DNA of 64,000 nucleotides from a virus. The position numbers and the translations under genes were made by a program. Shown in pieces: positions 3,466 to 64,000 of the stretch. The DNA lies in the IMG/VR virus record IMGVR_UViG_3300025237_000001, positions 1 through 64,000 of that record; one strand, 5' to 3'. Every line of letters starts with the position of its first letter. Within the stretch, counting starts at the first letter, position 1. The notes below the pieces were generated by a model. That model saw only the letters and a list, made by a program, of their open reading frames with translations. It had not been told where the DNA came from and made no database searches.

Positions 3466-3730
3466 AAGAAATTGTTGTGCCGTAATTGCTAATATGCTTT
3501 TAGAAGTACCGTTAACTGAGGAATCTTTAATTGCTGACCTTGAATGGAATCTTGACGATGCAAGTTATAAGGCACCAGAGCAAACGATTCAATGGGTTCG
3601 AACCCATGAGACTTTATTAAAACACATTCCAAAGCCAACTGAAGAATGGCATTTTAAGGTCTTGTCAATTTTTTCTACGATGAGTGTAGAGGATATTAAG
3701 AAAGACGTAAATGATTTTAAAGTAAGCTAA
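3455..3730 (+). CDS. hypothetical protein
   Basis: ORF overlapping the upstream stop. Confidence 0.55.
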   Translation: MENRRNCCAVIANMLLEVPLTEESLIADLEWNLDDASYKAPEQTIQWVRTHETLLKHIPKPTEEWHFKVLSIFSTMSVEDIKKDVNDFKVS

Positions 3731-4272
3731 TGAAAATAAATGTGACTGAAATAAATATAGGGCAAAGATTATTAATTAAAAATAGATATCAGTGTTATCG
3801 AATTATTGAAAAGATTAGTGAAACACCAAAAACAATAACTTTTAAAGTAAAACATTTCATAAATGATATTAGAAGTATTGGTGATTTTGTTAATAAAAAT
3901 GTGACGTTCAGAAAATCTACATTTATTGAAAGTCGAGAAGATTTTATTGGAACAAAGTATGGACAATTACATAGAATAAAATCAGAAAGATTAAAAGATG
4001 TTATTGATAGAGGTTTTGATTTATATAAAGTAAAATCAAAACCAATATATAAATGGGGTGATGATGGACTAGAAATTGGTGATTATGTGTTTGCCATGTT
4101 TAATGGTATTAATTATGAAACTGAAACAATATTAGATGATGGTAGAATAAATTCAATACCACCATCAAAGAATTCAAATAAACCACAATTATCTGGATGG
4201 AATAATAAAAATGGTGGGTTTGAAGATTATTATGAAAAAGTAGATATAAATATAATAAGGGATAATATATGA
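3730..4272 (+). CDS. hypothetical protein
   Basis: TAATG coupling to the upstream gene, 180 aa. Confidence 0.55.
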   Translation: MKINVTEINIGQRLLIKNRYQCYRIIEKISETPKTITFKVKHFINDIRSIGDFVNKNVTFRKSTFIESREDFIGTKYGQLHRIKSERLKDVIDRGFDLYKVKSKPIYKWGDDGLEIGDYVFAMFNGINYETETILDDGRINSIPPSKNSNKPQLSGWNNKNGGFEDYYEKVDINIIRDNI

Positions 4273-4439
4273 GTTGGAAATATGTATACAACACGCATCA
4301 CATGAGGGGATTTAAATATCTAGCTAAAGCGTTACATTTAGCTAGTGAATGTGGATACGATTTTATTTTATGGAAAGGTGAAGTTTTATATATTAAATCG
4401 GCAGAATCAATTGGAATTAAAGAAAGTGAATTATTTTAA
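4269..4439 (+). CDS. small hypothetical protein (56 aa)
   Basis: ATGA overlap; read manually. Confidence 0.45.
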   Translation: MSWKYVYNTHHMRGFKYLAKALHLASECGYDFILWKGEVLYIKSAESIGIKESELF

Positions 4440-4448
4440 AAATATCAT

Positions 4449-4805
4449 ATGGCAACTAAATTAATAAAAAATATCGTTAGGGAATCCACGGAAGTTATTG
4501 ATGGGAAAGAGATTACGATAACCTTAACGTCAGACCAAAAGATTGAATTGAAATTAAAAGGTAAAAGGGGTAGTGGTGAGACTATTTATATTAAAGATTT
4601 ATATAATCAGTTATATGGTCTTGAAGGAAGTGATGGTGATAAAAAGAAGGGTGTTGTAAGTATTTCTAATACTCCGAAGAAGCGTGGTGGTGGTAAGATG
4701 ATATCTTTAAGTGATTTAAGAAGTCACAATGCTATATCGATGTTAGATATTCCTACGTTAGCTAAATTCGACCAGATAATAAAGAGTGTAATAGATAGTC
4801 CATGA
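4449..4805 (+). CDS. hypothetical protein
   Basis: ORF with AT-rich leader, 118 aa. Confidence 0.6.
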   Translation: MATKLIKNIVRESTEVIDGKEITITLTSDQKIELKLKGKRGSGETIYIKDLYNQLYGLEGSDGDKKKGVVSISNTPKKRGGGKMISLSDLRSHNAISMLDIPTLAKFDQIIKSVIDSP

Positions 4806-5155
4806 AACAAATTAAAGGTATAGTTGAACTTCACGGTGATGAGATTCAATTAAACGAAGGTAACAACGAAATATCAGTTGTAATCGAAAACTTAAGCCCC
4901 TACGATTTCGAGGGGGTAATAATGAACCAGACCAACACTTGGAAACTGGATTTGATAAAAGATTTATGTGAGGATGTCGGACTTGTTAAGATAGCAAAGA
5001 AAATTGACGGCTTATATACAAAAGCTGAAATGGAGGATTGTTGGTCAAAGGCTGCTAACTATACAGATGAGGTAATTCGCATCACTAGTGGACGCTCTAA
5101 CTTTTCTACACCAATTAGGGATAGTAAAGATAAGTTCTTTAAAGACAAGAAGTAG
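4802..5155 (+). CDS. hypothetical protein
   Basis: ATGA overlap with upstream gene. Confidence 0.55.
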   Translation: MKQIKGIVELHGDEIQLNEGNNEISVVIENLSPYDFEGVIMNQTNTWKLDLIKDLCEDVGLVKIAKKIDGLYTKAEMEDCWSKAANYTDEVIRITSGRSNFSTPIRDSKDKFFKDKK

Positions 5156-5196
5156 TTTAAGTGTATATATTCATCGATTAACGGCAATATTATTGT

Positions 5197-5220
5197 GAGG
5201 TTTTTCTACGTAAAAACCTC
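5197..5220. terminator. hairpin, possible terminator
   Basis: GAGGTTTTT-ctacgt-AAAAACCTC, 9-bp stem after the gene run; no long U-tract. Confidence 0.4.
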
Positions 5221-5257
5221 TGAATGACTTTTGTTATATTTTGACATATTTATTGAT

Positions 5258-5539
5258 ATGTGCAACGTTACGATAGCTAAGTCAAAATTACAACTATTAA
5301 CCTCACGGACCGAGAAGGACCTATATGCGTTACGGTATGAGTCAATGGATTTTTTACCTTTAAACGAAGATACTTACTTTAAGGTTAAGATGGTATGTAA
5401 TGATAATAGCTTAACTTGCCCAATCTACAAATACGCTGGTAGTATTAAATTCAGGAAAGTGGAAAAAAATGTTTTTAATGTTTTAAACACCCTAGCTACC
5501 GAACACAGTCTTTACTTAGACTACAAAAAGATTTCTTAA
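5258..5539 (+). CDS. hypothetical protein
   Basis: ORF 5231..5539; ATG 5258 lies 4 nt after TATTTAT (5247-5253). Confidence 0.5.
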   Translation: MCNVTIAKSKLQLLTSRTEKDLYALRYESMDFLPLNEDTYFKVKMVCNDNSLTCPIYKYAGSIKFRKVEKNVFNVLNTLATEHSLYLDYKKIS

Positions 5540-17538: not shown

Positions 17539-18018
17539 TTAATGACCTCTACTTAGAATTAAGTATTCAGGTGATATTCTATTGAACCCTAATTTGTTCC
17601 AGAAGCTAATACCTTCGGGTTTTGGAGCAACAATTAAATCGTTGGTTTCTTTAAACATTCCCCAAAGTGATTTAACAGCTTCGTTAAGAATAAATACTGT
17701 TTCGTAATCTTTTTTAAATTTAACACCTACTATTTCTAGGGTATTATCAGCGTTAGCTTCTGCAATCATGATAATACCAGCGTTTCTATCGTTATATTCT
17801 ACCAATATCGATATTGTATCTGGTGATTCATCAGTTATTTGTAAGTTTATTTCTTCTCTAAGAAATCTTTTTATGATGTTTTTATTTTCTGTTATATTTT
17901 TTGGTGAGTTAACATGTCCACATTCATGACAAGTAAATAAATCATCACCTCCATCTTTGACTTCCCAAGACCATTCGCAATTAGCGCAATTAACTTTAGG
18001 TTCTTTAGTATCTTTCAT
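17539..18018 (-). CDS. zinc-finger plus GNAT-like protein
   Basis: CANC...TCHECGH, then ITE/LRE motifs, then a GNAT-like fold ending in A.P..EGISFWNKLGF. Confidence 0.5.
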   Translation of the reverse strand: MKDTKEPKVNCANCEWSWEVKDGGDDLFTCHECGHVNSPKNITENKNIIKRFLREEINLQITDESPDTISILVEYNDRNAGIIMIAEANADNTLEIVGVKFKKDYETVFILNEAVKSLWGMFKETNDLIVAPKPEGISFWNKLGFNRISPEYLILSRGH

Positions 18019-18691
18019 TATTCATTATTTTTATATTTTTAGGGTCGAATACCATTCTAACCGTTGATTTAACGTTACCACCTTCGTAAGCATCTAAAAC
18101 ACCTACAACGTCAATATAATCAAAACCAAACCACTCACCTATTACAGCAACCACATCAGTTTTCAATCCTTTATCGTTATTTTGATAATAACTAAATTGT
18201 TTTATTGCCTTGTTGACATCATCTTCTGGGACACCAGCACTAACAAAACCTCTTATTACTTTATTAACATCAATAAACCTAAATCTATCACCAGTTGCTA
18301 CAATTGTAACTACCTTACCATCGTTAAGATGGGTCGTTAATACCTTTTCTTCAGCACCTTGATAATCCATTGACCTTCTAGGGTTTGCATATGTTTTAGC
18401 GATGCTTCTAACATTGGTTAAAAATACTGGTTTTCTCATTTTAAATTGAGCTTTCAGTTTAGGTACTAAATCTAAATATCTAAAATACGCATCTTCATCA
18501 CCACTTTCTCTACTTACTTTAATTTTATTTTGTAATTCGTAATACTGAGTTAAGTCGCTGATATAGTCTACAGAAATAGTTCTAGACGAAAACCCACCTT
18601 CTTTTTCTAAATTTCTAACATCAGGTGTCCCATGATACCAAACATTATTTAAACCTTCGTTTAATAATCTTTTAATAATCTTTTTACTCAT
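18005..18691 (-). CDS. ADP-ribosyltransferase-fold protein (ART-PolyVal-like)
   Basis: WYHGT...GF...VFLT...A..YA...GFD....V...VFDP..IKI pattern directly after LLNE. Confidence 0.55.
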   Translation of the reverse strand: MSKKIIKRLLNEGLNNVWYHGTPDVRNLEKEGGFSSRTISVDYISDLTQYYELQNKIKVSRESGDEDAYFRYLDLVPKLKAQFKMRKPVFLTNVRSIAKTYANPRRSMDYQGAEEKVLTTHLNDGKVVTIVATGDRFRFIDVNKVIRGFVSAGVPEDDVNKAIKQFSYYQNNDKGLKTDVVAVIGEWFGFDYIDVVGVLDAYEGGNVKSTVRMVFDPKNIKIMNNERY

Positions 18692-18731: not shown

Positions 18732-21218
18732 TTAATTGGTTACTTTAGTAGTAATCCCATCCTTAGTATTGTAGGATAGTTTTATAGTTCCACCCTCTTT
18801 TAGTTTACCATCCATGACGGCATCCGTGATAGGGTCTTCAACATATTTCTGTATCGCTCTCTTAAGAGGTCTAGCACCATATTCTTTATGGTAACCTTCT
18901 TTAGCAATGAAATCCATCGCTGATTTATTTACGACCATCTTGTAATTTAATTCAAGGATGCGTTCTTTAACCTCTTTGATTTCATTCTTGATAATTACGT
19001 TGAGATTTTCTTGTGTTAAAGGGTTAAAAATGATAGTTTCATCAATTCTATTCAAGAATTCTGGTTTGAATTTATCCTTAAGTGCTTTTTGTATAATACT
19101 TTTAGCCCTTTCCTCTTCATCAATAGAGGTGTTGTTACTTCCGTATCCAATACCTCTACCAAATTGTGATAATTCTTTCACACCTATGTTAGAAGTCATA
19201 ATAATTAAAGCGTTTTTAAAGTCCACTTTTCTATCATTACTATCAGTTAAATGACCTTCATCTAATACTTGAAGTAAAAGGTTGAAAACATCTGGATGTG
19301 CCTTTTCAATTTCATCAAAAAGAATAACTGAATAAGGGTTTCTTCGTACAGCCTCAGTGAGTTTACCACCTTCTCCGTAACCGACATAACCTGGAGGTGC
19401 TCCCACCAATTTAGACATCGAGAATTTCTCCATGTATTCGGACATATCCATTCTTATTAGTGAATCATCATTATCAAATACGTGCTTAGCAAGTGTTTTA
19501 GTAACGAATGTTTTACCTACACCAGTTGGTCCAAGGAATATAAAGGACCCAATTGGTTTATTACTATTTCTAATCCCTAATCTACTTCTTCTAATTGCTT
19601 TAGAGATTTGTTTAACCGCTTCGTCTTGACCAATAATTTCCTTTTTAAGTTCTGCTTCAAGATTTTTAAGTGAGTTATTCTCTGTTGTTGTAACTTTGGT
19701 TAACGGAATACCAGTCATAGTTGAAATAACCTTCTCAACAATCTCTTCTGTAATTATAGTTTTGTCTTTAAGATTACTATCTTCCCATTTCTCCATCATT
19801 TCTTCCAACTTAGCTTCAAATTCTTTACGTTTATCACGCATCATTGCCGCATCTTCGAAATCTTGTTTGTTTATGATTTCCTTCATTTGGTCTTTAAGAG
19901 CTTGAATTTTAATTTTCAGTTCTTTGATTTGCACTGGTAACTTGATATCAATATTTGTTGATGCACCAGCTTCATCTAGGATGTCAATGGCTTTGTCAGG
20001 CATCGCTCTATCAGAGATGTAACGATTTGCTAACTTAACAATGTATTCAACTACGTTATCGTCATAACTTACATTATGATATTTCTCGTAGTTTACTTTA
20101 ATATTTTTAAGAATTGTAACGGTTTCGTCTAAACTTGGTTCTTTTATCAATACTTGTTGGAAACGTCTAGTTAATGCACCATCGGTTTCAATATTTTCTC
20201 TAAATTCATCAAGAGTAGTTGCTCCAATTATTTGTATCTCACCTCTCGCTAATGCTGGTTTGAATATATTGGATGCGTCTAATGAACCTGATGCGTTACC
20301 CGCACCTACAAGTGTATGTAGTTCATCGATAAACAGAATTACATCTTGATTATCTTTTAATTCACTTAAGATAACTTTCATACGCTCTTCAAATTGTCCT
20401 CTGTACTTTGTTCCAGCTACGATTGAAGCTAAATCCAATGAGAATATTCTTTTTCCTAATAGAGGTCTAGGTGCGTCACCAGTATTTATCAAAGTTGCTA
20501 GACCTTCAATGATTGAAGTCTTTCCAACTCCTGGTTCTCCAATCAGTACTGGGTTGTTTTTCTTACGTCTCGATAGGATTGCAGTAACTCGTCTTATTTC
20601 ATCTTCACGACCTACTACTGGGTCGATTTTACCTTCCAATGCTGCTTTTGAGATATCTCTACAAAAACCGTCTAAGGCTGGTGTTTTAGAAGCGTTAGCT
20701 TTAGAAGTAGCACGCTTTTTAGGTTTTAATGGTTGTGTACTTTCATATTCATCTTCGGGTGTCATATCCATATCGTTATCGTTTTCTGCCATAAGCTTTG
20801 TTTTAAATATTTTATAGTTTATTTTTAGTTCTACGAGCATTTTTTGTGCCACACATTTGGTTTTTAAGATACCTAACATGATATGTGCTTCACTAATAGT
20901 ATCATCTCCCATTCCACTACATTCTTTTTGCATTTCTTCAATTACAAATTTAGTGTCGGAACTTGGTAAAATCTCTTCTTTAGTGAGGTACGCTCTATTA
21001 TTGTTGATTATATTTTGTGTTAAGTGAGTTGTCAATTTTTCAAATAAAGCATCTACATCAAAGTTCAAGTTTCGTAGAATTTTAACGATACTGTTGTGTT
21101 CGTGCATAATGATTGACAGTAATATATGTTCAGGTCTGAACTTATTGTCTTCATAGTCTTTTGCTTGGTAAATTGCTTTTTTCATCAGCTCACTGGCTGT
21201 CGGTGTCAATTCCATCAT
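18732..21218 (-). CDS. clpC: ClpC-type AAA+ chaperone / protease ATPase
   Basis: Clp N-domain, two AAA+ modules (GEPGVGKT, GPTGVGKT), UVR-type M-domain; also an IG(Y/F)-like loop region RGIGYG. Confidence 0.95.
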   Translation of the reverse strand: MMELTPTASELMKKAIYQAKDYEDNKFRPEHILLSIIMHEHNSIVKILRNLNFDVDALFEKLTTHLTQNIINNNRAYLTKEEILPSSDTKFVIEEMQKECSGMGDDTISEAHIMLGILKTKCVAQKMLVELKINYKIFKTKLMAENDNDMDMTPEDEYESTQPLKPKKRATSKANASKTPALDGFCRDISKAALEGKIDPVVGREDEIRRVTAILSRRKKNNPVLIGEPGVGKTSIIEGLATLINTGDAPRPLLGKRIFSLDLASIVAGTKYRGQFEERMKVILSELKDNQDVILFIDELHTLVGAGNASGSLDASNIFKPALARGEIQIIGATTLDEFRENIETDGALTRRFQQVLIKEPSLDETVTILKNIKVNYEKYHNVSYDDNVVEYIVKLANRYISDRAMPDKAIDILDEAGASTNIDIKLPVQIKELKIKIQALKDQMKEIINKQDFEDAAMMRDKRKEFEAKLEEMMEKWEDSNLKDKTIITEEIVEKVISTMTGIPLTKVTTTENNSLKNLEAELKKEIIGQDEAVKQISKAIRRSRLGIRNSNKPIGSFIFLGPTGVGKTFVTKTLAKHVFDNDDSLIRMDMSEYMEKFSMSKLVGAPPGYVGYGEGGKLTEAVRRNPYSVILFDEIEKAHPDVFNLLLQVLDEGHLTDSNDRKVDFKNALIIMTSNIGVKELSQFGRGIGYGSNNTSIDEEERAKSIIQKALKDKFKPEFLNRIDETIIFNPLTQENLNVIIKNEIKEVKERILELNYKMVVNKSAMDFIAKEGYHKEYGARPLKRAIQKYVEDPITDAVMDGKLKEGGTIKLSYNTKDGITTKVTN

Positions 21219-36455: not shown

Positions 36456-36476
36456 TCGTAATGATTAGGCTTTTTT
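36448..36476 (+). terminator. rho-independent terminator
   Basis: AAGCCTAATC-gtaat-GATTAGGCTT plus T-run. Confidence 0.75.
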
Positions 36477-36510
36477 GTGTTTATTCGCATATTTATTGAA
36501 AAAGGTATTT

Positions 36511-37200
36511 ATGAACGAATTTAAAGTTATAAGAGGTGGTAGAGCTGGAACTGGATTATTAATTGAAGGTGATGCTGGTTTTATCGAACCAAATGATATT
36601 AGGAACAAGCCATTTGTTACTGAAGCTGCTAAGATAGGCAAAGGTACTGTAATGATTGAACCATTAATCCTATTCGTTGTGTTACAAAAATTTGGTGTAG
36701 AGAACAAGAACGGTAGAATCTATCCAGAACACATTTTAAAAAGAGAAGCTGTTAATTATCAAGAGTTAATTAACAATAGGTCAGCAGTTGGGGAAAGTGA
36801 CCACCCTGAATCATCAGTTATTTCAAACAGTAGAGTTTCACATGAAATCAAAAAGATTTGGTGGGAAGGTCGCACGCTTGTTGGTGAAATAGAAATCATT
36901 ATGTCTCCAGGTTTTATTAATCAAGGAATCATATCTTGTGAGGGTGATAACATTGCAAACATGTTAAGAAAAGGAATACGTGTGGGAGTATCTTCAAGAG
37001 GTGTTGGTTCACTGGATGAAATTGCTGGTAAATTATTAGTGCAAGAAGATTTTGAATTAATATGTTGGGATATCGTTACGAGTCCTAGTACTCCAGGTTC
37101 TTATATGTTCAATAGTAAGTCTGAGGCACAACCATTTATGGAGTCTGAGATAAAGGGGAAAGACCTATTAATCGACAATTTAAATAAATTTTTATTATAA
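36511..37200 (+). CDS. prohead core protease (T4 gp21-like)
   Basis: NKNGRIYP..IL, GESDHPE, VSH, GVSSRGVGS, DIV..PSTPG; ATG 36511 preferred. Confidence 0.92.
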   Translation: MNEFKVIRGGRAGTGLLIEGDAGFIEPNDIRNKPFVTEAAKIGKGTVMIEPLILFVVLQKFGVENKNGRIYPEHILKREAVNYQELINNRSAVGESDHPESSVISNSRVSHEIKKIWWEGRTLVGEIEIIMSPGFINQGIISCEGDNIANMLRKGIRVGVSSRGVGSLDEIAGKLLVQEDFELICWDIVTSPSTPGSYMFNSKSEAQPFMESEIKGKDLLIDNLNKFLL

Positions 37201-37334
37201 TAAAATAGATAATTTAATAAAATTAAGTTTTTTTTTACCTAAAACGGGTGTTTTAGGAAAATAAACTATATTTATTAAGTAACTGGTACGATTTTATATT
37301 GTGCCTAATCACAAAAACTTTAAAACAAAGACAA

Positions 37335-39032
37335 ATGAAAGACGAAAAAAAGTCTATTATAGAAGAAGCACTAGCGGAATTTAACCTTATCGAGGAAACA
37401 TTAAATTCGAATGCTAAAGAAATACTTCGTTCCGTAGCGAAAGAAGAAATTACTAGCACGCTAAACGAGTCCTTGAATGAGGATGAGTATGATATTGAAG
37501 ATATCGAAGACGTTGACACTGATACAGATGTTGACGCATTACCAATAGATGACGCACCAGATGCAGCACCAGAAATGGGAGCTGAAATGGGTCCAGAACC
37601 AGAAATGGGAATGGAACCTGATTTAGGTGGTTCTGAAGAACTTGGATTAGATGACATGGGAATGGACGCTGGAGAAGAAGGACTAGAAATAGAACTTGGA
37701 GCAGAAGAAGGTAGCGAAGACTACGGATTGGACATGACTGGAGCATCAGACGAGGAAGTTATATCAGTTTACAAGAAATTGCAAGGTGAAGACGAAATAG
37801 AAGTAGTATCATCAGAAGAAGTAATAATTAAAGACCCAGTATCGGGAGCAGAGTACAACGTCAAAATGGGCGGTGGTAGTATGCTAGACCAAGGGGAAAT
37901 GGACGCAGAAGGTGGACTAGGAGCAGAAATGGGACTAGACGCTGAACCAGAAATGGGACCAGAAATGGGTGCGGAACTTGGACCAGAGGTTGAAGCTGAA
38001 CCAGCAATGGATACAGAAGTAGACGCTGAACCAGCACCAGATTTTGGTGGAGGTGAAGAAGAAACTGAAGTTGCACCAGAAGGTGGAGAAGCAGAAGAAA
38101 CTGAGGAAGAAGAAGATGAAATAGGTGAAGCAGTTGTTTATGAAATTGAATTATCGGAAGATGATGAAATTGTAGAAGGTTTAGAAAATGACCTTAAGAT
38201 AAACAAAGATAGCAAAATTGGTGCTACCGCAGACGGTAAGCCAAGAACTGCTACTAGTGATGTTGAAAAAAACATGACTGGCGATTTAGCTACTGGCGAT
38301 ATCGAAGGACAAAAAGCTCCAAATGATTCTGATTCAGGTGATAATCTTACAGGTGGATTTGACGATGATGCTCAAAACGGAAGTGGCGACAATCATGCGG
38401 CTCACATCATGGAAGATGCTGAAGTAGTTGATGAAAACGAAAACATTGATGAAACGGTAGAAGTTGTGGACGAAGAAGAAGTTGTAGAAGGAGAAGATGC
38501 TATTGACGAAAAGATTTCAACCAACGGTGCTCGTGAGAGACAAGCTGGTGGAGATTTAACTAAAATTAAAGGTCCAGGGGCAAGGCAAACTGCTAAGAAC
38601 CTAGGTCACACAGTTGAAAGCGTATCTAAAAAATACAACACTTTATTAAAAGAAGCGAAAGCTCTTAAAGTTGAGAACGTAGCGTTCAAATCATCTTTAA
38701 AAGATTTTAAAAGAACCATGACTGAGACAGCGATATTTAATATCAACCTAACTCACGCTACTAAATTATTCTTAGAACACTCTACTACTATTGGAGAGAA
38801 GAAAGATATTTTAACTAGATTTGATGAAGAGGTTAGTACAATCGAAGAGTCTAAAAAACTTTACAAACGAATCAATTCTGAATTAGGAAATCAAAAACCT
38901 CTTGCTGAATCGATTGAAAATAAATTAATGTCTGAGCAAACATCAGGTCAATCAACTCAAATTAACGAGACGGTTGCTTATGTAGACCCAGCACAAAAAA
39001 GAGTTCTTGATTTAATCAATAGAACTAAATAA
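37335..39032 (+). CDS. prohead scaffold/core protein (gp22-like position), acidic low-complexity
   Basis: Between protease and capsid gene; PEMG repeats, C-terminal coiled coil, many [ILV]xE sites; ATG 37335 preferred. Confidence 0.7.
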   Translation: MKDEKKSIIEEALAEFNLIEETLNSNAKEILRSVAKEEITSTLNESLNEDEYDIEDIEDVDTDTDVDALPIDDAPDAAPEMGAEMGPEPEMGMEPDLGGSEELGLDDMGMDAGEEGLEIELGAEEGSEDYGLDMTGASDEEVISVYKKLQGEDEIEVVSSEEVIIKDPVSGAEYNVKMGGGSMLDQGEMDAEGGLGAEMGLDAEPEMGPEMGAELGPEVEAEPAMDTEVDAEPAPDFGGGEEETEVAPEGGEAEETEEEEDEIGEAVVYEIELSEDDEIVEGLENDLKINKDSKIGATADGKPRTATSDVEKNMTGDLATGDIEGQKAPNDSDSGDNLTGGFDDDAQNGSGDNHAAHIMEDAEVVDENENIDETVEVVDEEEVVEGEDAIDEKISTNGARERQAGGDLTKIKGPGARQTAKNLGHTVESVSKKYNTLLKEAKALKVENVAFKSSLKDFKRTMTETAIFNINLTHATKLFLEHSTTIGEKKDILTRFDEEVSTIEESKKLYKRINSELGNQKPLAESIENKLMSEQTSGQSTQINETVAYVDPAQKRVLDLINRTK

Positions 39033-39062: not shown

Positions 39063-40865
39063 ATGAATAGCAATTTTTTAACTTCAGGTCAAGTTGGTAA
39101 CATCGGACTTAACCACATGAAACAAGTAAGAGAGAACACTATCAATAAATGGGATTCATTAGGATTCTTAGATGGTCTTCAAGGACATGTAAAAGAGAAT
39201 ATCGCTCAGTTATATGAAAACGAAGCTTCTCACTTATTAAACGAATCAACTGATGCTTCAAGCTCAGGTTCATTCGAAACGGTTGTATTTCCAATCGTAA
39301 GGAGAGTATTCTCTAAATTATTAGCAAATGATATTGTATCAGTACAAGCTATGAATATGCCAATTGGTAAATTATTCTTCTTCGTACCACAAACATCTGC
39401 AAGATATGACGCTGCTGGTGATGCATACGGAGACCCACATAAAAATGGACCTCAGTTTTCTGCTCACACTTCAATGGGTGCTGATGGACTACCAATCGTA
39501 AGAGGTGTAGACCCATCTTATGCTCCAACTGAGTATTTAGCTAAAAATCTTTATGATATTTACTATAACGATGGATTATTTGATGCATCTAAAGGTACTA
39601 TCTCAATTATTGCGGGAACAGGTAACTTAGTTACTTTATCTGCTGACGGTACATTCGCTGCCGCTGCTGATTTCTCTGCACTTCCAACTTCAACTGATGG
39701 TTCTTTAAGAACTGCCATTTTCCAAGTATCTGGATTTAGTGCAATAAACAAAGGTAGATTAAGTGGACCAGATGGTAACCCAATGGACACAGAATCTTTC
39801 TTAGCTTCTTTAAAAGTTGTTACCAATGGTATCGCTTTAAATGATGCTGACGGAAACGTAATTGTTGCTGACGCTACAATCGTTCCTTTTAGATTAGTTA
39901 CTCAAAAATACGGTAGAGGTATCGTAGATTATAGTGACATATGTGACGCTGCTGGTGTTATCTATCTTGAATTAGATATGACTCACCCAGTTGACGCTGC
40001 TGGAACTTCAACATACGATGGTTATGTTGGTGCAGATATGGGCGGTGCTCAATCAGCATTTACAAGTGCTGATTTCTCAGTATCTTGGGCAGAATATGCT
40101 ACGTTAGAACTTGAAACAGAAATGGGTGAAGTATCTTTCAAATTAGACGAGGTTGTTGTTTCCGTTGAAGAACGTAAATTAAGAGCTACATGGTCTCCAG
40201 AATTAGCTCAAGATGTTAGTGCATTCCACAACATTGATGCTGAGGCTGAATTAACTGCAATGTTATCAGAACAAGTTGCTGCTGAAATCGATAGAGAAAT
40301 CTTAAGAGACATCAGAAGTGCTGCTGCATGGCAATTAAGATGGGATTGGAACGGATGGAGAAAAGCTTCATTGGCTGCTAATGCTTACACGCAAAAAGAC
40401 TGGAATCAAACTTTAATTACTAAAGTTAACCAAATTTCAGCACAAATCCACAAGTCTACTCTTAGAGGTGGTGCTAACTTTATCGTAGTTTCTTCAGAAA
40501 TTTCTGCTGTATTCGATGATTTAGAGTACTTCCACGTAAGTGATGCATCTCCAGAGCAAGACCAATATAATATGGGTATCGAGAAAATCGGTTCATTAAG
40601 TGGTCGTTACCAAGTGTACCGTGACCCTTATGCACCATCTTGGTCACTTATTATGGGACATAAAGGAAAATCATTGTTAGACACTGGTTACATCTACGCA
40701 CCTTACGTGCCAATGCAATTAACGCCTACAATGTATAACCCATTCAACTTCGCACCAGTGAAAGGTATAATGACACGTTATGCTAAGAAAGTGGTAAACA
40801 ACAGATTCTACGGAGCTGTAAGAGTTGATGGATTACAAACATTCAACATCGCTGAATTAAGATAA
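39063..40865 (+). CDS. major capsid protein (T4 gp23-like)
   Basis: P.VRR.F..L.A..I..VQ.M..P.G, RKLRA.WS.ELAQD..A.H..DAEAEL..L...I..EI.REI, YAPYVP. Confidence 0.96.
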   Translation: MNSNFLTSGQVGNIGLNHMKQVRENTINKWDSLGFLDGLQGHVKENIAQLYENEASHLLNESTDASSSGSFETVVFPIVRRVFSKLLANDIVSVQAMNMPIGKLFFFVPQTSARYDAAGDAYGDPHKNGPQFSAHTSMGADGLPIVRGVDPSYAPTEYLAKNLYDIYYNDGLFDASKGTISIIAGTGNLVTLSADGTFAAAADFSALPTSTDGSLRTAIFQVSGFSAINKGRLSGPDGNPMDTESFLASLKVVTNGIALNDADGNVIVADATIVPFRLVTQKYGRGIVDYSDICDAAGVIYLELDMTHPVDAAGTSTYDGYVGADMGGAQSAFTSADFSVSWAEYATLELETEMGEVSFKLDEVVVSVEERKLRATWSPELAQDVSAFHNIDAEAELTAMLSEQVAAEIDREILRDIRSAAAWQLRWDWNGWRKASLAANAYTQKDWNQTLITKVNQISAQIHKSTLRGGANFIVVSSEISAVFDDLEYFHVSDASPEQDQYNMGIEKIGSLSGRYQVYRDPYAPSWSLIMGHKGKSLLDTGYIYAPYVPMQLTPTMYNPFNFAPVKGIMTRYAKKVVNNRFYGAVRVDGLQTFNIAELR

Positions 40866-40898
40866 GATAACTTCTTAATCTCAGTCGAGATAAATACA

Positions 40899-40930
40899 AA
40901 AGCCCAACATTACAGATGTTGGGCTTTTTT
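40899..40930 (+). terminator. rho-independent terminator after capsid gene
   Basis: AAAGCCCAACAT-tacag-ATGTTGGGCTTT 12-bp stem plus T-run. Confidence 0.8.
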
Positions 40931-40952
40931 TATTTTATAGACTATTTATAAT

Positions 40953-41810
40953 ATGAACTTATATAACTTATATGAAGAAGTTTTAAAAGAAGATTGTGAG
41001 AAAATATCTCTCGTAAGTAAATCCAAGAAAGGTAATCGTTATTTTAAAATGCTTAAAGATGCGCAATGGCAACATTATGACGCACCTAAAGGTGACCTAA
41101 CTGATTACGTTAGTGGGGAAGATGATAGAAAACGTCTAGTTACTAATTTAAGTAAAGCTGATAAGAAACTTTATAGAGAATGGTTAAAAACACCAGAAGG
41201 TGAAACATCGGTAAAATTATTTGCTGATAAGCAAACTAAATTTAAAGAAAGGACTAAAGGTTGGGGTGAAGGACCTATTTCTGAATCAACTGATAGAATG
41301 ATTGATGTATCATGTGCTGCTTTAGGTAGTATTAAAATTGATGGTAAATATTTATTATTTAAAGAAAAAATGAAATACCAACCAATAGGTGGTGGTCTTA
41401 AATTTAAACCATCCGCAATTCCATTCTTAGAATCAATAAATTACCGTACAGCTAGAACTGATAATGATATTAGAATTCAAATACCCGAATCTAAATGGGA
41501 AATTTTTAAACAATGGTTCCAAAGTGGTAAAGATAGAGAAATATCAATTGATAGAGAAATGGAAGAAGAATTAGGTTCATTCCTAGACTCTTCATATCTT
41601 TCACAAATGAATACAAGTAACTATCAACTTAAAGAAGTAATTGAAGGTAAACATAGAATATTTCAAATACATCAAATTACGTTTTCAGATGAAGTTCGTA
41701 ATGCGATATTAGAATTAGTTCATCATAAACAATTATTTATATTGGCAACGCCAGAAGAAATGAAATCTTCTGATGAAATATCAAGCCACAGCCATAATAT
41801 CATATTATGA
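40953..41810 (+). CDS. SMODS-associated-type NUDIX domain protein with N-terminal extension
   Basis: From aa 116: I.VS.AAL..IKIDGKYLL...YQPIGG..KF....FLE...ND.R..IP..K...F..WF.SG.DRE....RE.EEEL. Confidence 0.7.
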   Translation: MNLYNLYEEVLKEDCEKISLVSKSKKGNRYFKMLKDAQWQHYDAPKGDLTDYVSGEDDRKRLVTNLSKADKKLYREWLKTPEGETSVKLFADKQTKFKERTKGWGEGPISESTDRMIDVSCAALGSIKIDGKYLLFKEKMKYQPIGGGLKFKPSAIPFLESINYRTARTDNDIRIQIPESKWEIFKQWFQSGKDREISIDREMEEELGSFLDSSYLSQMNTSNYQLKEVIEGKHRIFQIHQITFSDEVRNAILELVHHKQLFILATPEEMKSSDEISSHSHNIIL

Positions 41811-42811
41811 GATTAAATACACTGTATACGCAAATATTAAACGAAGGAACAGGTTGTCCAGTTCTTAAAGTAACTAAACAGATTCAATCTGAGGTAATAA
41901 GATTTAAATCTGATGAAGATTTATTAAGAGGTGGTGGTATTTCAATAGAAGCTTTAGATAGAGCCGCACATGGCTTCTCTGAGGGTGATATTAAGACAAT
42001 ACACCCTAGTAAGTTATCCATTAAATGGAAAGAAGACCATGAAAATGTTATGTGGGAGATTAAAAAAAGTGGAATGAACATCACTCAATGGTCTAAACAG
42101 ATAAATTTAAATGAACCAATTGATGTTAGTTTTAAAAATGGTAAGTTTTTCATTGAAGATGGACATCATAGGTATGTTGCCGCTAAAACACTTAACGTTG
42201 AATTAAACTGTAATTTAGAAATTAAAGAAAATCCAATAAGGGTCTTAGCACCAACATTAGGATATGATGAATTTCATAGATGTCTTTATAAGCAAGTTTC
42301 ATCAGGAGTAAGTGAAATAGTGGAAGGTTCAAAGATTAAAACTAATCGAGGTTATTTAATTGATAACGGTGATAAATACACCAAATTAACTACCGATAAA
42401 ATAGAATATGAAAATGCCTTAAGATTAATTAATAACCCAAATAAACATTTCGTTAAATATTATTCAGCTAAACCTCATAATGAAAAATATTATGAGTTAG
42501 TCATGGATAAACTTAATCCATTAAGTGATAATGATTCTGATATCGTTGATATGATTCAACAAAGCTTAGGACTTCAAGAATATATGTTGGATAGTGCTAA
42601 ACGAAACTCAATAATAAACGAGTTTAAAAGAAACCCAGAATGGTATGAAGGGTTAGGTTCAATACAAGACGTTTTAAAGATTATTAATTCTATTTATCAA
42701 ATGTATTTATATGCCAAAAATAACACTTTTTCCTTATTTGATTTAAGGGCGCAAAATTTAGGTAGAACTAATGAGGGAATTTTAGTTCATTTCGATTTAG
42801 GTTCGGGTTAA
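41807..42811 (+). CDS. ParB/Srx-like domain fused to a protein-kinase-like domain
   Basis: IDV....F.IEDGHHRY.AA (ParB/Srx); KLT.D..E...A, DLRAQN and FDLG (kinase catalytic and Mg-binding loops). Confidence 0.7.
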   Translation: MRLNTLYTQILNEGTGCPVLKVTKQIQSEVIRFKSDEDLLRGGGISIEALDRAAHGFSEGDIKTIHPSKLSIKWKEDHENVMWEIKKSGMNITQWSKQINLNEPIDVSFKNGKFFIEDGHHRYVAAKTLNVELNCNLEIKENPIRVLAPTLGYDEFHRCLYKQVSSGVSEIVEGSKIKTNRGYLIDNGDKYTKLTTDKIEYENALRLINNPNKHFVKYYSAKPHNEKYYELVMDKLNPLSDNDSDIVDMIQQSLGLQEYMLDSAKRNSIINEFKRNPEWYEGLGSIQDVLKIINSIYQMYLYAKNNTFSLFDLRAQNLGRTNEGILVHFDLGSG

Positions 42812-43347
42812 AATGTTTCGTGAGTTGCGAATCTTTTAATTTTATAACAAGTATTTGGTGTTAAACCAGAATAATTATCGGTTAAAAATAAATTATGTCG
42901 CTGATTGTATAACATATCACTATCATCATCAATAATAGCGTACTTATAAAAGTCATAATAGTTTATACCATATTTTTCCTCAACAATATTATCTTTTATC
43001 CACCTTTTAATTTCATTTCCCCTACAACAGTCTCTACAACCATATGGAGTAACGTCATGGACCTTAAAGGTACCACCTACTCTATCAAAAATCTCTTGTA
43101 GACCTTCCACACCATAATTTCGCCAAGTACTACTTACAACTACCTTTGCATCAATAGCTACAACTAAGTTATTGAACCATGAAATCCTTTCACGACAAAA
43201 TTGGTTAGCGTGATAAGCTGCCATATCCTGTTCTTCGGGGAAACCATCTTTTGTCCATCGTTCATGTCTTTCCTTATAGAAAAGTTGACAATTGAAAACT
43301 CCATCTATGTCTAGAAATATAATAAAAGGTACTTTTTCCATTACCAA
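42808..43347 (-). CDS. HAD-family phosphatase (HAD_SAK_2 / RNA-repair-associated type)
   Basis: IFLDIDGV.N, VVSSTWR, RG.EI..W, AIIDDD.DM. Confidence 0.85.
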   Translation of the reverse strand: MVMEKVPFIIFLDIDGVFNCQLFYKERHERWTKDGFPEEQDMAAYHANQFCRERISWFNNLVVAIDAKVVVSSTWRNYGVEGLQEIFDRVGGTFKVHDVTPYGCRDCCRGNEIKRWIKDNIVEEKYGINYYDFYKYAIIDDDSDMLYNQRHNLFLTDNYSGLTPNTCYKIKRFATHETF

Positions 43348-63348: not shown

Positions 63349-64000
63349 TTTATAATTTCTTTATACTCTTCTATTATTTGTGTGACAACATTTTCACTTT
63401 TATATTTGTCAACATCTGTAGGGACTGGGTGTAATTTCTTACCCAATACAATCCCCTTATCGTCAACATCATATATCCAACCAGCTTTACCACATAACCA
63501 ACCTTCAATTGTTGTCCTACCTAATAGGATTCCAGCGGTTTCGGTACATTGGTTGATATAATTCTCAACCTTTCTTTGTACTCCATGATACGTTACGTGA
63601 GTGTCACTATCATTTATAAGACTATCAACGGTTACACCATTTTCTTTTCCTATAACCCATAGTTTACTTCCTTCTTTTTTGGTTCTTTCAATTAAATCAG
63701 ATAACATATTTTTCCTTAAGTAATCAATAGTTCCAACAAACAAAGTAATTTTTTCATCAATGAGCGTATCTTTTGGTTGAAATCTATTCGTGTCAATTGG
63801 GTTATAAATAACGCTTATCTTTTCTTCAGGTATGTCATAACCTGAAGTGATAAAATCTTTTATCTCAGGTCTAATTGCAATATATTTCTTAATATTATCA
63901 TGTACTACTGGATGCTCTAAAGATATTACTTCAGAGTGTATTGAAGCTATCGCTGGGATTTCAGGGTATAATTGTAACATTAAGTTGGTTACAGGTGTGT
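63345..64000 (-). CDS. glycosyltransferase (GT4-like), 5' end outside the window
   Basis: Frame is open to the window edge; I.NP.D..RF, GRT..EG...G motif. Confidence 0.65.
   Translation of the reverse strand, partial: TPVTNLMLQLYPEIPAIASIHSEVISLEHPVVHDNIKKYIAIRPEIKDFITSGYDIPEEKISVIYNPIDTNRFQPKDTLIDEKITLFVGTIDYLRKNMLSDLIERTKKEGSKLWVIGKENGVTVDSLINDSDTHVTYHGVQRKVENYINQCTETAGILLGRTTIEGWLCGKAGWIYDVDDKGIVLGKKLHPVPTDVDKYKSENVVTQIIEEYKEIIK

Follow-up and report, generated by a model that had tools for sequence, protein, structure and literature searches.

Among the effectors of bacterial CBASS (antiphage signalling that is based on cyclic oligonucleotides), Cap14-16 have been described as binding cyclic nucleotide messengers, with Cap16 portrayed as a transmembrane (TM)-NUDIX effector that binds cyclic nucleotides (PMC12642688, PMC10419184). 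CBASS is triggered late in infection by prohead proteases (PMC12991175). In phage T4, a leader of ten residues is enough for even foreign proteins to be loaded into the head (PMC9026906); this capsid-targeting sequence is cut after a glutamate, which is required for processing, and the cargo set varies among relatives (PMC9026906, PMC3012670). Furthermore, myoviruses have been proposed to pack Nudix, Macro and ADP-ribosyltransferase (ART) proteins into their heads against NAD- and nucleotide-based immunity; in the same survey, phage Nudix domains fall mainly into two clades, NudE and NadM (Iyer, Burroughs, Anantharaman and Aravind 2022, PMC9503650). Here, we analyzed a window of 64,000 nucleotides (positions 1 to 64,000 of the virus record IMGVR_UViG_3300025237_000001), in which a gene for a 285-aa protein with a SMODS-associated NUDIX domain (Sa_NUDIX, PF18167) lies directly behind the major capsid gene. 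The record, an IMG/VR virus contig with a length of 197,358 bp and about 31% G+C, is rated 56% complete, and its source is an uncultured T4-like giant phage known from metagenomes. We consider the protein a candidate anti-signalling cargo of the phage head.

The open reading frame (ORF) proposed in an earlier sequence-only reading was recovered with exactly the same boundaries, and the motif series quoted for it was found in residues 116-285. A profile search with PF18167 gave 75.3 bits (E 8e-21), the curated threshold being 25 bits; the match spans residues 117-274 of the protein and positions 2-179 of the 199 in the profile, so the Sa_NUDIX membership proposed in that reading holds. A six-frame search of the whole record returned this ORF as the single Sa_NUDIX match. 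The general Pfam NUDIX model (PF00293) gave no match at E up to 1, and a PDB profile search detected no sequence relative with a solved structure; its best Nudix matches had E of about 0.5. Among the PADLOC models, those for the CBASS '2TM effector' matched via their Nudix part with E values down to 2.9e-17, and the reverse transcriptase-associated NUDIX model ('RTasNUDIX') matched as well.

Modelling with AlphaFold2 (AF2) from an 80-sequence alignment gave a confident fold for the Sa_NUDIX domain (predicted local distance difference test, pLDDT, 96.9; predicted template-modelling score, pTM, 0.89). All of the top 50 VIA structural matches were Nudix-fold chains: the NadM ADP-ribose pyrophosphatase came first (Z 10.6 over 117 residues), followed by a Listeria MutT/Nudix protein (3i9x, Z 9.9) and NrtR (Z 9.7), with RppH and decapping enzymes further down. 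About two thirds of the domain aligned structurally, and the low Foldseek template-modelling scores (0.3-0.43) mark the Nudix fold as divergent. The Nudix box itself is split and departs from the contiguous 23-residue form GX5EX7REUXEEXGU, as a P-x-G-G motif (144-147) is separated by an insert of about 45 residues from the helix E196-x4-R201-E202-x-x-E205-E206, in which the REUXEE pattern is retained.

Across the 80 aligned members, G146, G147, W188, R195, E202, E205 and E206 are invariant, and all of them are present in the query; judged by this alignment, the domain keeps every family-invariant residue, RExxEE included. In both the soluble and the TM/effector clade of the family, conservation reaches 91-100% at S120, P144, G146, G147, D172, R174, W188, R195, E196, R201, E202, E205 and E206. 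The two clades therefore should handle the same kind of ligand and, as far as the alignment tells, share one conserved pocket. The conserved split-box residues argue for metal-dependent nucleotide binding and probably catalysis, unlike in sensor Nudix domains that have lost the box.

Next, we placed the protein within its family. A HMMER search across 1.84 billion representatives yielded 233 members at E <=1e-3, and a quick maximum-likelihood tree (IQ-TREE, 148 near-full-length domains, no outgroup) split in two with an SH-aLRT support of 96. Clade A (69 rows) is made up almost entirely of stand-alone soluble proteins. In clade B (79 rows), 55 forms have N-terminal TM helices, and TIR and alpha/beta hydrolase fusions are present in addition; over the whole tree, the hydropathy scan assigned TM helices to 56/148 representatives. 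Bacterial members are fused to TIR (P0082, P0090), patatin (P0173), alpha/beta hydrolase (P0155), a P-loop domain (P0075), TCAD9 (P0035) or two TM helices; the patatin fusion belongs to clade B and is counted among the TM forms, as the scan flags its N-terminal segment. One domain joined to so many killing modules (pore, TIR, lipase) shows the pattern of a signal-receiving domain. The TIR part of P0090 (L017:345-1565) matches the Thoeris ThsB1 model with 209 bits, which hints that some Sa_NUDIX domains work with NAD-derived signals and not with CD-NTase products. Partner genes of the TM, TIR and patatin forms are not visible, as the respective contigs are too short.

Ten clade A members with usable context lie on contigs of T4-like phages, and the window adds an eleventh. 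Non-phage members comprise the bacterial TCAD9 fusion and P0144, a lone cellular gene among transporters; a metagenome-assembled genome of Woesearchaeota also carries a clade A-type member. No CBASS genes were found near the stand-alone cellular members of this clade. The bacterial P0035 (L011:8001-12119, 1372 aa) combines TCAD9, a ternary conflict-system domain, with Sa_NUDIX within clade A and stands beside IS66 and Mu-type transposase genes. According to the tree, the phage forms and the defence clade appear to be old sisters. A recent capture from CBASS was considered and rejected, since the phage forms make up a deep sister clade and are not nested among the TM, TIR and patatin fusions. 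The sequence-only reading had described a defence-derived domain captured by the phage, and this part of it did not stand: the soluble forms branch outside the defence forms, and their clade also includes stand-alone cellular genes away from CBASS.

The N-terminus of the protein links it to other genes of the same phage. Scanning all N-termini of the record, we found the leader pattern M-[KNR]-L-x-x-L-[YF]-x-x-V-[IL]-x-E on seven genes including the Sa_NUDIX gene, and at the strictest cut there were 9 pairs of similar N-termini versus 2 and 1 in two internal control segments. At residue 13 or 14, these leaders terminate with [VI]-[LIF]-x-E, the motif expected from the sequence for the phage's own Peptidase_S77 head protease. 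Also in relatives (L005, L008, L020, L012, L014, L015), the leader on the Sa_NUDIX gene matches those of neighbours in the same genome and not those of its orthologues. For example, one leader type is common to Sa_NUDIX, the overlapping HAD_SAK_1 gene and a 73-aa ORF in L005; in L008 and L020, Sa_NUDIX and adjacent genes carry a different type that starts with M-I-T-T-I-N-E-F and is near the T4 capsid-targeting sequence; and L012 has a third type. Similarly, the copy of the megaphage LR745206.1 has a leader ending in INE/S (the slash denoting the predicted cut).

The glutamate of the predicted cut site lies about four residues before the first beta strand in the query (ISE/S), P0002, L014 and P0013. 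Two observations lend weight to the ISE motif, namely its place in a disordered linker and its alignment with the predicted leader cut site in relatives devoid of the basic module described below. Gene order is also shared: on the 360-kb IMG/VR contig L014, the leader-tagged Sa_NUDIX gene directly follows the capsid gene, and in L015 the order is protease, scaffold, capsid, leader-tagged ART-PolyVal (43.4 bits) and then an overlapping leader-tagged Sa_NUDIX gene. Together with the window, these arrangements indicate that the slot behind gp23 houses leader-tagged genes in a cassette of changing content, comparable to the plastic internal-protein loci of T-even phages. The capsid gene of L015, a 9.5-kb contig, is split into two ORFs (L015:3619-5430; 3619-4299 and 4351-5430), and a frameshift, an assembly error or an insertion may account for this. 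Given the own-genome leaders, the location behind the capsid gene in two relatives and the protease motif, loading of the Sa_NUDIX protein into the capsid in the manner of T4 is likely by analogy, and the earlier suggestion of a packaged protein, which was made from the window alone, appears probable in view of the shared leader, the Peptidase_S77 gene and the synteny. It is from the T4 precedent that we infer both packaging and cleavage.

The 285-aa protein consists of a leader, a basic module and the Sa_NUDIX domain, and a search of 5.8 billion clusters separated the latter two. Residues ~110-285 matched stand-alone relatives of 182-205 aa (55-76% identity), all of them Sa_NUDIX proteins, and residues ~19-95 matched another set of 156-435 aa (53-70% identity) without Pfam domain and with unrelated remainders. 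The complete three-part architecture was seen only in this phage's cluster, with all other matches covering <=62% of the query; longer fused forms close to the query were not found, which is weak evidence. The basic module comprises about 70 residues and may be N-terminal, central or C-terminal in its carriers. Its isoelectric point (pI) of 9.4 compares with 5.7 for the Nudix domain. At least ten otherwise unrelated proteins (P0016-P0025), several of them leader-tagged, contain the module, usually flanked by [LIVF]-x-E, and these flanks look as if the head protease excised it. In the AF2 model, the module appears as a small helical domain that includes a hairpin (mean pLDDT 71), the linker at residues 106-116 is disordered (pLDDT <50) and the leader forms, at low confidence, an amphipathic helix. 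No fold match to the module reached Z 5 (best Z 4.8), and the Atlas gave nothing usable. No second copy of the module was found in the record, and PHROGs held no family for the 285-aa protein or its N-terminal part. The claims of the sequence-only reading on architecture were borne out: the hydropathy scan found no hydrophobic 19-mer and thus no TM segment in the 285-aa protein, the N-terminus is distinct in that leader and basic module precede the Sa_NUDIX domain, and ISE at the domain border is a plausible protease site.

Altogether, we rank an anti-signalling role of the soluble Sa_NUDIX domain first, as a tentative reading. As to the ligand and any effect on immunity, we infer the following course of events. 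The protein would be made late together with the head proteins and be bound into the scaffolding core via its leader, which would represent this genome's version of the T4 capsid-targeting sequence. The Peptidase_S77 prohead protease would cut after VLKE and probably also after ISE, and the Nudix domain of about 20 kDa would be carried in the head and released with the DNA into the next cell. The protein would also be present late in the producing cell, when head-protease activity switches CBASS on. Its conserved pocket, the same as in the Cap16-type 2TM, TIR and patatin effectors, would bind a nucleotide immune messenger or its precursor; a ligand with a diphosphate bond would be hydrolysed by the domain, and the host effectors would then not be triggered. 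In effect, a free soluble viral copy would compete for or destroy the same ligand as the host effectors. Because prohead proteases trigger CBASS late, a position in the head operon would be sensible whether or not the protein is injected. The narrower proposition, that a capsid-borne relative of the effectors' ligand-binding domain intercepts by binding or hydrolysis the messenger of CBASS-, Thoeris- or defence-associated reverse transcriptase (DRT)-linked effectors, we regard as doubtful.

A link to counter-defence is helped by the phage protein P0041, in which an intact 2H/Acb1-like phosphodiesterase with both HxT motifs is fused to Sa_NUDIX, and by the fusions of its 2H relatives. Relatives of this 2H module (P0206, P0213, P0217) are fused to ART-PolyVal, RelA_SpoT and a phage portal domain, so the module itself seems to be shuffled and is probably a head-borne cargo module. 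The query showed neither a match to Acb1 (PF23474) nor a 2H fold, the fused 2H/Acb1-like domain being confined to P0041.

Several points weigh against an anti-signalling role. Nudix enzymes cut diphosphate bonds, and canonical 3'-5' cyclic oligonucleotides have no such bonds; hydrolysis of the CBASS signal is therefore chemically doubtful, and Nudix chemistry is compatible only with binding, or with action on signals or precursors that contain a diphosphate. The literature searched contained no demonstrated ligand of any Sa_NUDIX domain, and according to a review, mutation of the NUDIX domain does not abolish Cap16 toxicity (PMC10419184). The deep sister clade and its stand-alone cellular genes without defence context, as they appear from sequence, do not speak for a role in immunity. 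Neighbours in other genomes (RtcB, HAD_SAK_1 and Rnl1; PARP and ART-PolyVal) point to RNA repair or ADP-ribose chemistry, and the Acb1 assignment of the P0041 2H module is barely better than that to a generic 2H protein (33.5 bits versus 30.6 bits for 2'-5' RNA ligase). Furthermore, [LIV]xE motifs occur in the 285-aa protein at chance frequency (7 observed versus 5.4 +/- 2.0 in shuffles), and packaging is argued by analogy with T4.

The strongest alternative, which we consider unlikely, is that the domain acts on an ADP-ribose (ADPR)-type immune signal or an ART by-product. As a partner of co-packaged ADP-ribosyltransferases, it would act by hydrolysis on ADP-ribose, NAD+ or ADP-ribosyl marks; its tasks could include the clearance of free ADPR, the destruction of ADPR-derived signals such as glycocyclic ADP-ribose (gcADPR), or the trimming of ADP-ribosyl to phosphoribosyl on the host targets of an injected ART. 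The chemistry of diphosphate cleavage suits such ligands, the best structural match is the NadM ADP-ribose pyrophosphatase domain with the ADPR-binding NrtR in third place, and a ThsB-like TIR is fused to Sa_NUDIX in P0090. The leader set of the record includes an ART-PolyVal protein, and in L015 the leader-tagged ART-PolyVal gene directly behind the capsid gene overlaps Sa_NUDIX, which agrees with the pairing with a phage ART that the sequence-only reading had put forward. ART-PolyVal genes further lie 2-5 kb from Sa_NUDIX in L005/L006 and L021, PARP two genes upstream in L008, and PARG and ADP-ribosylglycohydrolase genes within 5 kb in L012 and L020. In addition, packaged myovirus-head Nudix proteins have been argued to counter NAD-derived signals (PMC9503650). 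However, large T4-like phages often possess ART, PARP and PARG genes, and co-occurrence over several kb may be due to chance; direct coupling was seen in L015 only, and Z scores of 8-10 extend across many Nudix specificities without setting ADPR-specific enzymes apart. This explanation also overlaps partially with an anti-signalling role if the ligand is an ADPR-derived immune signal. Because it holds a diphosphate bond, such a ligand would reconcile much of the conflict, and the ThsB-like TIR fusion, the ART neighbours and the NadM and NrtR matches would all be in keeping with it.

Giant genes of the polyvalent type (lysozyme plus ART-PolyVal) were observed 2 kb downstream of the RtcB/Sa_NUDIX/HAD_SAK_1 genes (L005:10278-14024, 1248 aa; L006:6145-11040, 1631 aa), and they differ in length though the two contigs are otherwise near-identical. 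Within the window, an ORF of 228 aa at 18005-18691 on the minus strand starts with a second leader type ending in LLNE/G, followed by a WYHGT motif as in ART-PolyVal proteins. It has no Pfam match at E 0.01, carries a TATTTAT word 4 nt 5' of its ATG and adjoins a ClpB-type AAA+ gene (18732-21218).

With a small probability, the protein has the same biochemical role but is not packaged: the leader would be a shared translation-start or recombination cassette, and the protein would act in the cytoplasm late, when head assembly triggers CBASS. The late-operon position with a promoter-like word directly upstream and the late activation of CBASS by the prohead protease (PMC12991175) would suit this. 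On the other hand, the leaders end in a protease motif, and they match within each genome and differ between genomes. Moreover, cargo types such as ART, ParB-like and 2H proteins are known fused to portal or MuF or as parts of polyvalent injected proteins, and ten leader residues of T4 are enough for head loading of foreign proteins (PMC9026906).

A smaller probability still is given to RNA-end processing within a phage RNA-repair kit, in which the domain would strip 5' di- or triphosphates, NAD-type caps or adenylate intermediates ahead of tRNA or mRNA sealing by RtcB or Rnl1. In L005/L006, Sa_NUDIX has RtcB on one side and HAD_SAK_1, which it overlaps, on the other; it overlaps a T4-type RNA ligase 1 gene in L010; it is fused to the 2H phosphoesterase in P0041; and a HAD_SAK_2 gene faces it in the window. 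RppH and decapping Nudix enzymes are also among its structural matches. However, the HAD_SAK_1 of L005 carries the local leader too, so membership in one cargo cassette may be all that the adjacency shows. In the closest relatives (window, L014, L015), the gene belongs to the head operon and is not next to ligases, and the bacterial branch is tied to effector domains and not to RNA repair. Finally, an ordinary housekeeping Nudix for nucleotide-pool sanitation, with no role in conflict, is very unlikely: stand-alone cellular members without defence neighbours exist and NudE-type genes occur in many phages (PMC9503650), but the protein scores 75 bits with the model of the defence-linked family and gives no match (E up to 1) to the general NUDIX model, and the leader tag, head-operon position and cargo-type neighbours argue against it.

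As a next step, we looked at the locus itself (Table 1). A T4-type head module on the plus strand surrounds the gene, as seen from Pfam matches and position in the window, and the location behind the major capsid gene given in the sequence-only reading proved correct, with a terminator-like hairpin between both genes. The capsid protein has an LLNE/S motif at residues 58-62, approximately at the expected end of a gp23-type propeptide. Neither a CD-NTase (SMODS) gene nor another signal generator was found as operon partner, the neighbours being prohead protease, scaffold, capsid protein, a ParB-like protein and HAD_SAK_2, and no PADLOC model matched the downstream gene. On a related phage contig, a ClpB-like gene (L009:2297-6823) is interrupted, with a weak match to intein splicing in its downstream part; this gene is found just upstream of genes for a GNAT protein, a 132-aa product and Sa_NUDIX.

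Table 1 Features of the Sa_NUDIX gene and its surroundings (window and record coordinates coincide; features beyond position 64,000 lie in the record only).
Feature	Position	Strand	Remarks
Sa_NUDIX gene: leader, basic module, Sa_NUDIX domain	40953..41810	+	285 aa, ATG start
Leader, residues 1-13, ending VLKE	40953..40991	+	Candidate capsid-targeting propeptide; same leader type on six other genes
Basic mobile module, residues 14-110	40992..41282	+	35 invariant columns across 11 proteins; pI 9.4
ISE, residues 108-110	41274-41282	+	In disordered linker at end of basic module (AF2)
Soluble Sa_NUDIX domain, residues 111-285	41283..41807	+	PF18167, AF2, structural matches
G146-G147, start of split Nudix box	41388..41393	+	Invariant in both family clades
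Nudix helix R201-E202-x-x-E205-E206, metal-binding glutamates	41553..41570	+	96-100% conserved in both clades; helical in model
Large terminase	30344	+	Pfam scan
Portal_T4	32268	+	Pfam scan
Prohead protease, T4 gp21 type	36475..37200	+	PF03420 Peptidase_S77, 72.9 bits; cut expected after [LIV]-x-E
Acidic scaffold-like protein, gp22 position	37299..39032	+	Between protease and capsid gene; D/E-rich; no Pfam match
Major capsid protein, Gp23 type	39063..40865	+	PF07068, 2e-70
Terminator-like hairpin and T run, 3' of capsid gene	40898..40937	+	14-pair stem, 5 GC pairs (hairpin 40898-40928), T-rich tail
TATTTAT promoter-like word	40943..40949	+	3 nt 5' of ATG
ParB/Srx-like protein, leader-tagged	41807..42811	+	334 aa; ATGA overlap with Sa_NUDIX stop; weak matches: phrog_1033 0.0035, DUF6551 0.019
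HAD_SAK_2 phosphatase, RNA-repair type	42808..43347	-	Convergent neighbour; PF18143, 77.2 bits
Leader-tagged gene	68586	-	No family
Leader-tagged gene	152816	-	ART-PolyVal, 40.6 bits
Leader-tagged gene	153862	-	
Leader-tagged gene	154362	-	ParB-like
Leader-tagged gene	180989	+	GP88
TATTTAT, further example	18702	-	
TATTTAT, further example	21229	-	
TATTTAT, further example	30325		
TATTTAT, further example	36490		

The gene start also shows the near-leaderless TATTTAT arrangement that had been noticed from the sequence. Over the whole record, this word occurs on the sense strand within 45 nt upstream of 46/210 ORFs, versus 9 for its reverse complement, and its distance to the ATG falls into two classes of 11-17 nt (25 genes) and 1-4 nt (10 genes, the Sa_NUDIX gene included). 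Words of the ATATTTATA or TATTTAT type are not over-represented across the window, and only the strand-specific placement 5' of ORFs is enriched; for TATTTAT as for ISE, the weight comes from position and comparison and not from count. T4's own TATAAATA is not used in the record (2 sense occurrences versus 31 of the reverse complement). TATTTAT may be the late-promoter word of this phage, and if so, the short-spacing class would yield leaderless or nearly leaderless mRNAs.

Sa_NUDIX is a recurrent module of bacterial immune effectors, with 2TM, TIR, patatin, TCAD9 and reverse-transcriptase partners, and the soluble, compact (about 20 kDa) and confidently modelled phage version offers an easy route to the ligand of these domains. 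If it blocks signalling, a new family would join the short list of anti-CBASS and anti-Thoeris proteins: a new anti-signalling class, akin to the sensor of the host itself, with delivery through a capsid-targeting leader and release by the head protease. This would also reveal the ligand of the Sa_NUDIX family and give the leader-tag loading system an enzyme cargo with testable function. That loading system seems widespread in uncultured T4-like phages and has been studied experimentally mainly in T4. A megablast of the locus against GenBank phages found nothing, and tblastn with two family members hit 1/50,697 GenBank phage records, the unannotated metagenomic 635-kb megaphage LR745206.1; this near absence from cultured phages may explain why the family was overlooked.

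Compared with the Cap16-type CBASS effectors (2TM plus Sa_NUDIX), the phage protein shares the domain family, the invariant GG, W, RE and RExxEE residues and the divergent Nudix fold with its insert of about 45 residues inside the Nudix box. In contrast to them, it lacks TM helices, has neither a CD-NTase nor a reverse transcriptase as partner, comes from the head operon of a phage, falls into a separate, deeply branching soluble clade and carries a predicted cleavable leader as well as the basic extra module. T4 IPI-III and Alt resemble the situation described here in the short leader on unrelated proteins of one genome, ending in [LI]-x-E, in the protease of the gp21 family, in a cargo that includes an ADP-ribosyltransferase and in a cargo set that varies between relatives (PMC9026906). 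They differ in the leader sequence, which here follows the M-[KNR]-L-x-x-L-[YF]-x-x-V-[IL]-x-E pattern, and in the cargo, which here consists of enzymes of defence-related families, known from sequence, instead of small basic inhibitors.

In NrtR and AraR, there are precedents for sensor use of the Nudix fold, with a nucleotide (ADPR) as the ligand bound. The Nudix box of NrtR is degenerate, whereas the catalytic glutamates of Sa_NUDIX are nearly invariant. With Acb1, Acb2, Acb4, Tad1 and Tad2, the protein would have the proposed outcome in common, the removal of an immune nucleotide signal, and its relative P0041 is fused to an Acb1-like 2H domain; these anti-defence proteins have other folds and no sequence relation to Sa_NUDIX, which is a viral relative of the host effector's own putative ligand-binding domain. 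The idea of head-packaged Nudix proteins is shared with Iyer et al. (2022), but the query falls into Sa_NUDIX and neither into the NudE nor the NadM clade, and the family is not mentioned in their survey of jumbo phages. What is new in comparison with these systems is the Sa_NUDIX identity of one leader-tagged cargo, the large soluble and mostly phage-borne sister clade of a defence domain, and a conserved basic module that is inserted, uniquely, between leader and enzyme.

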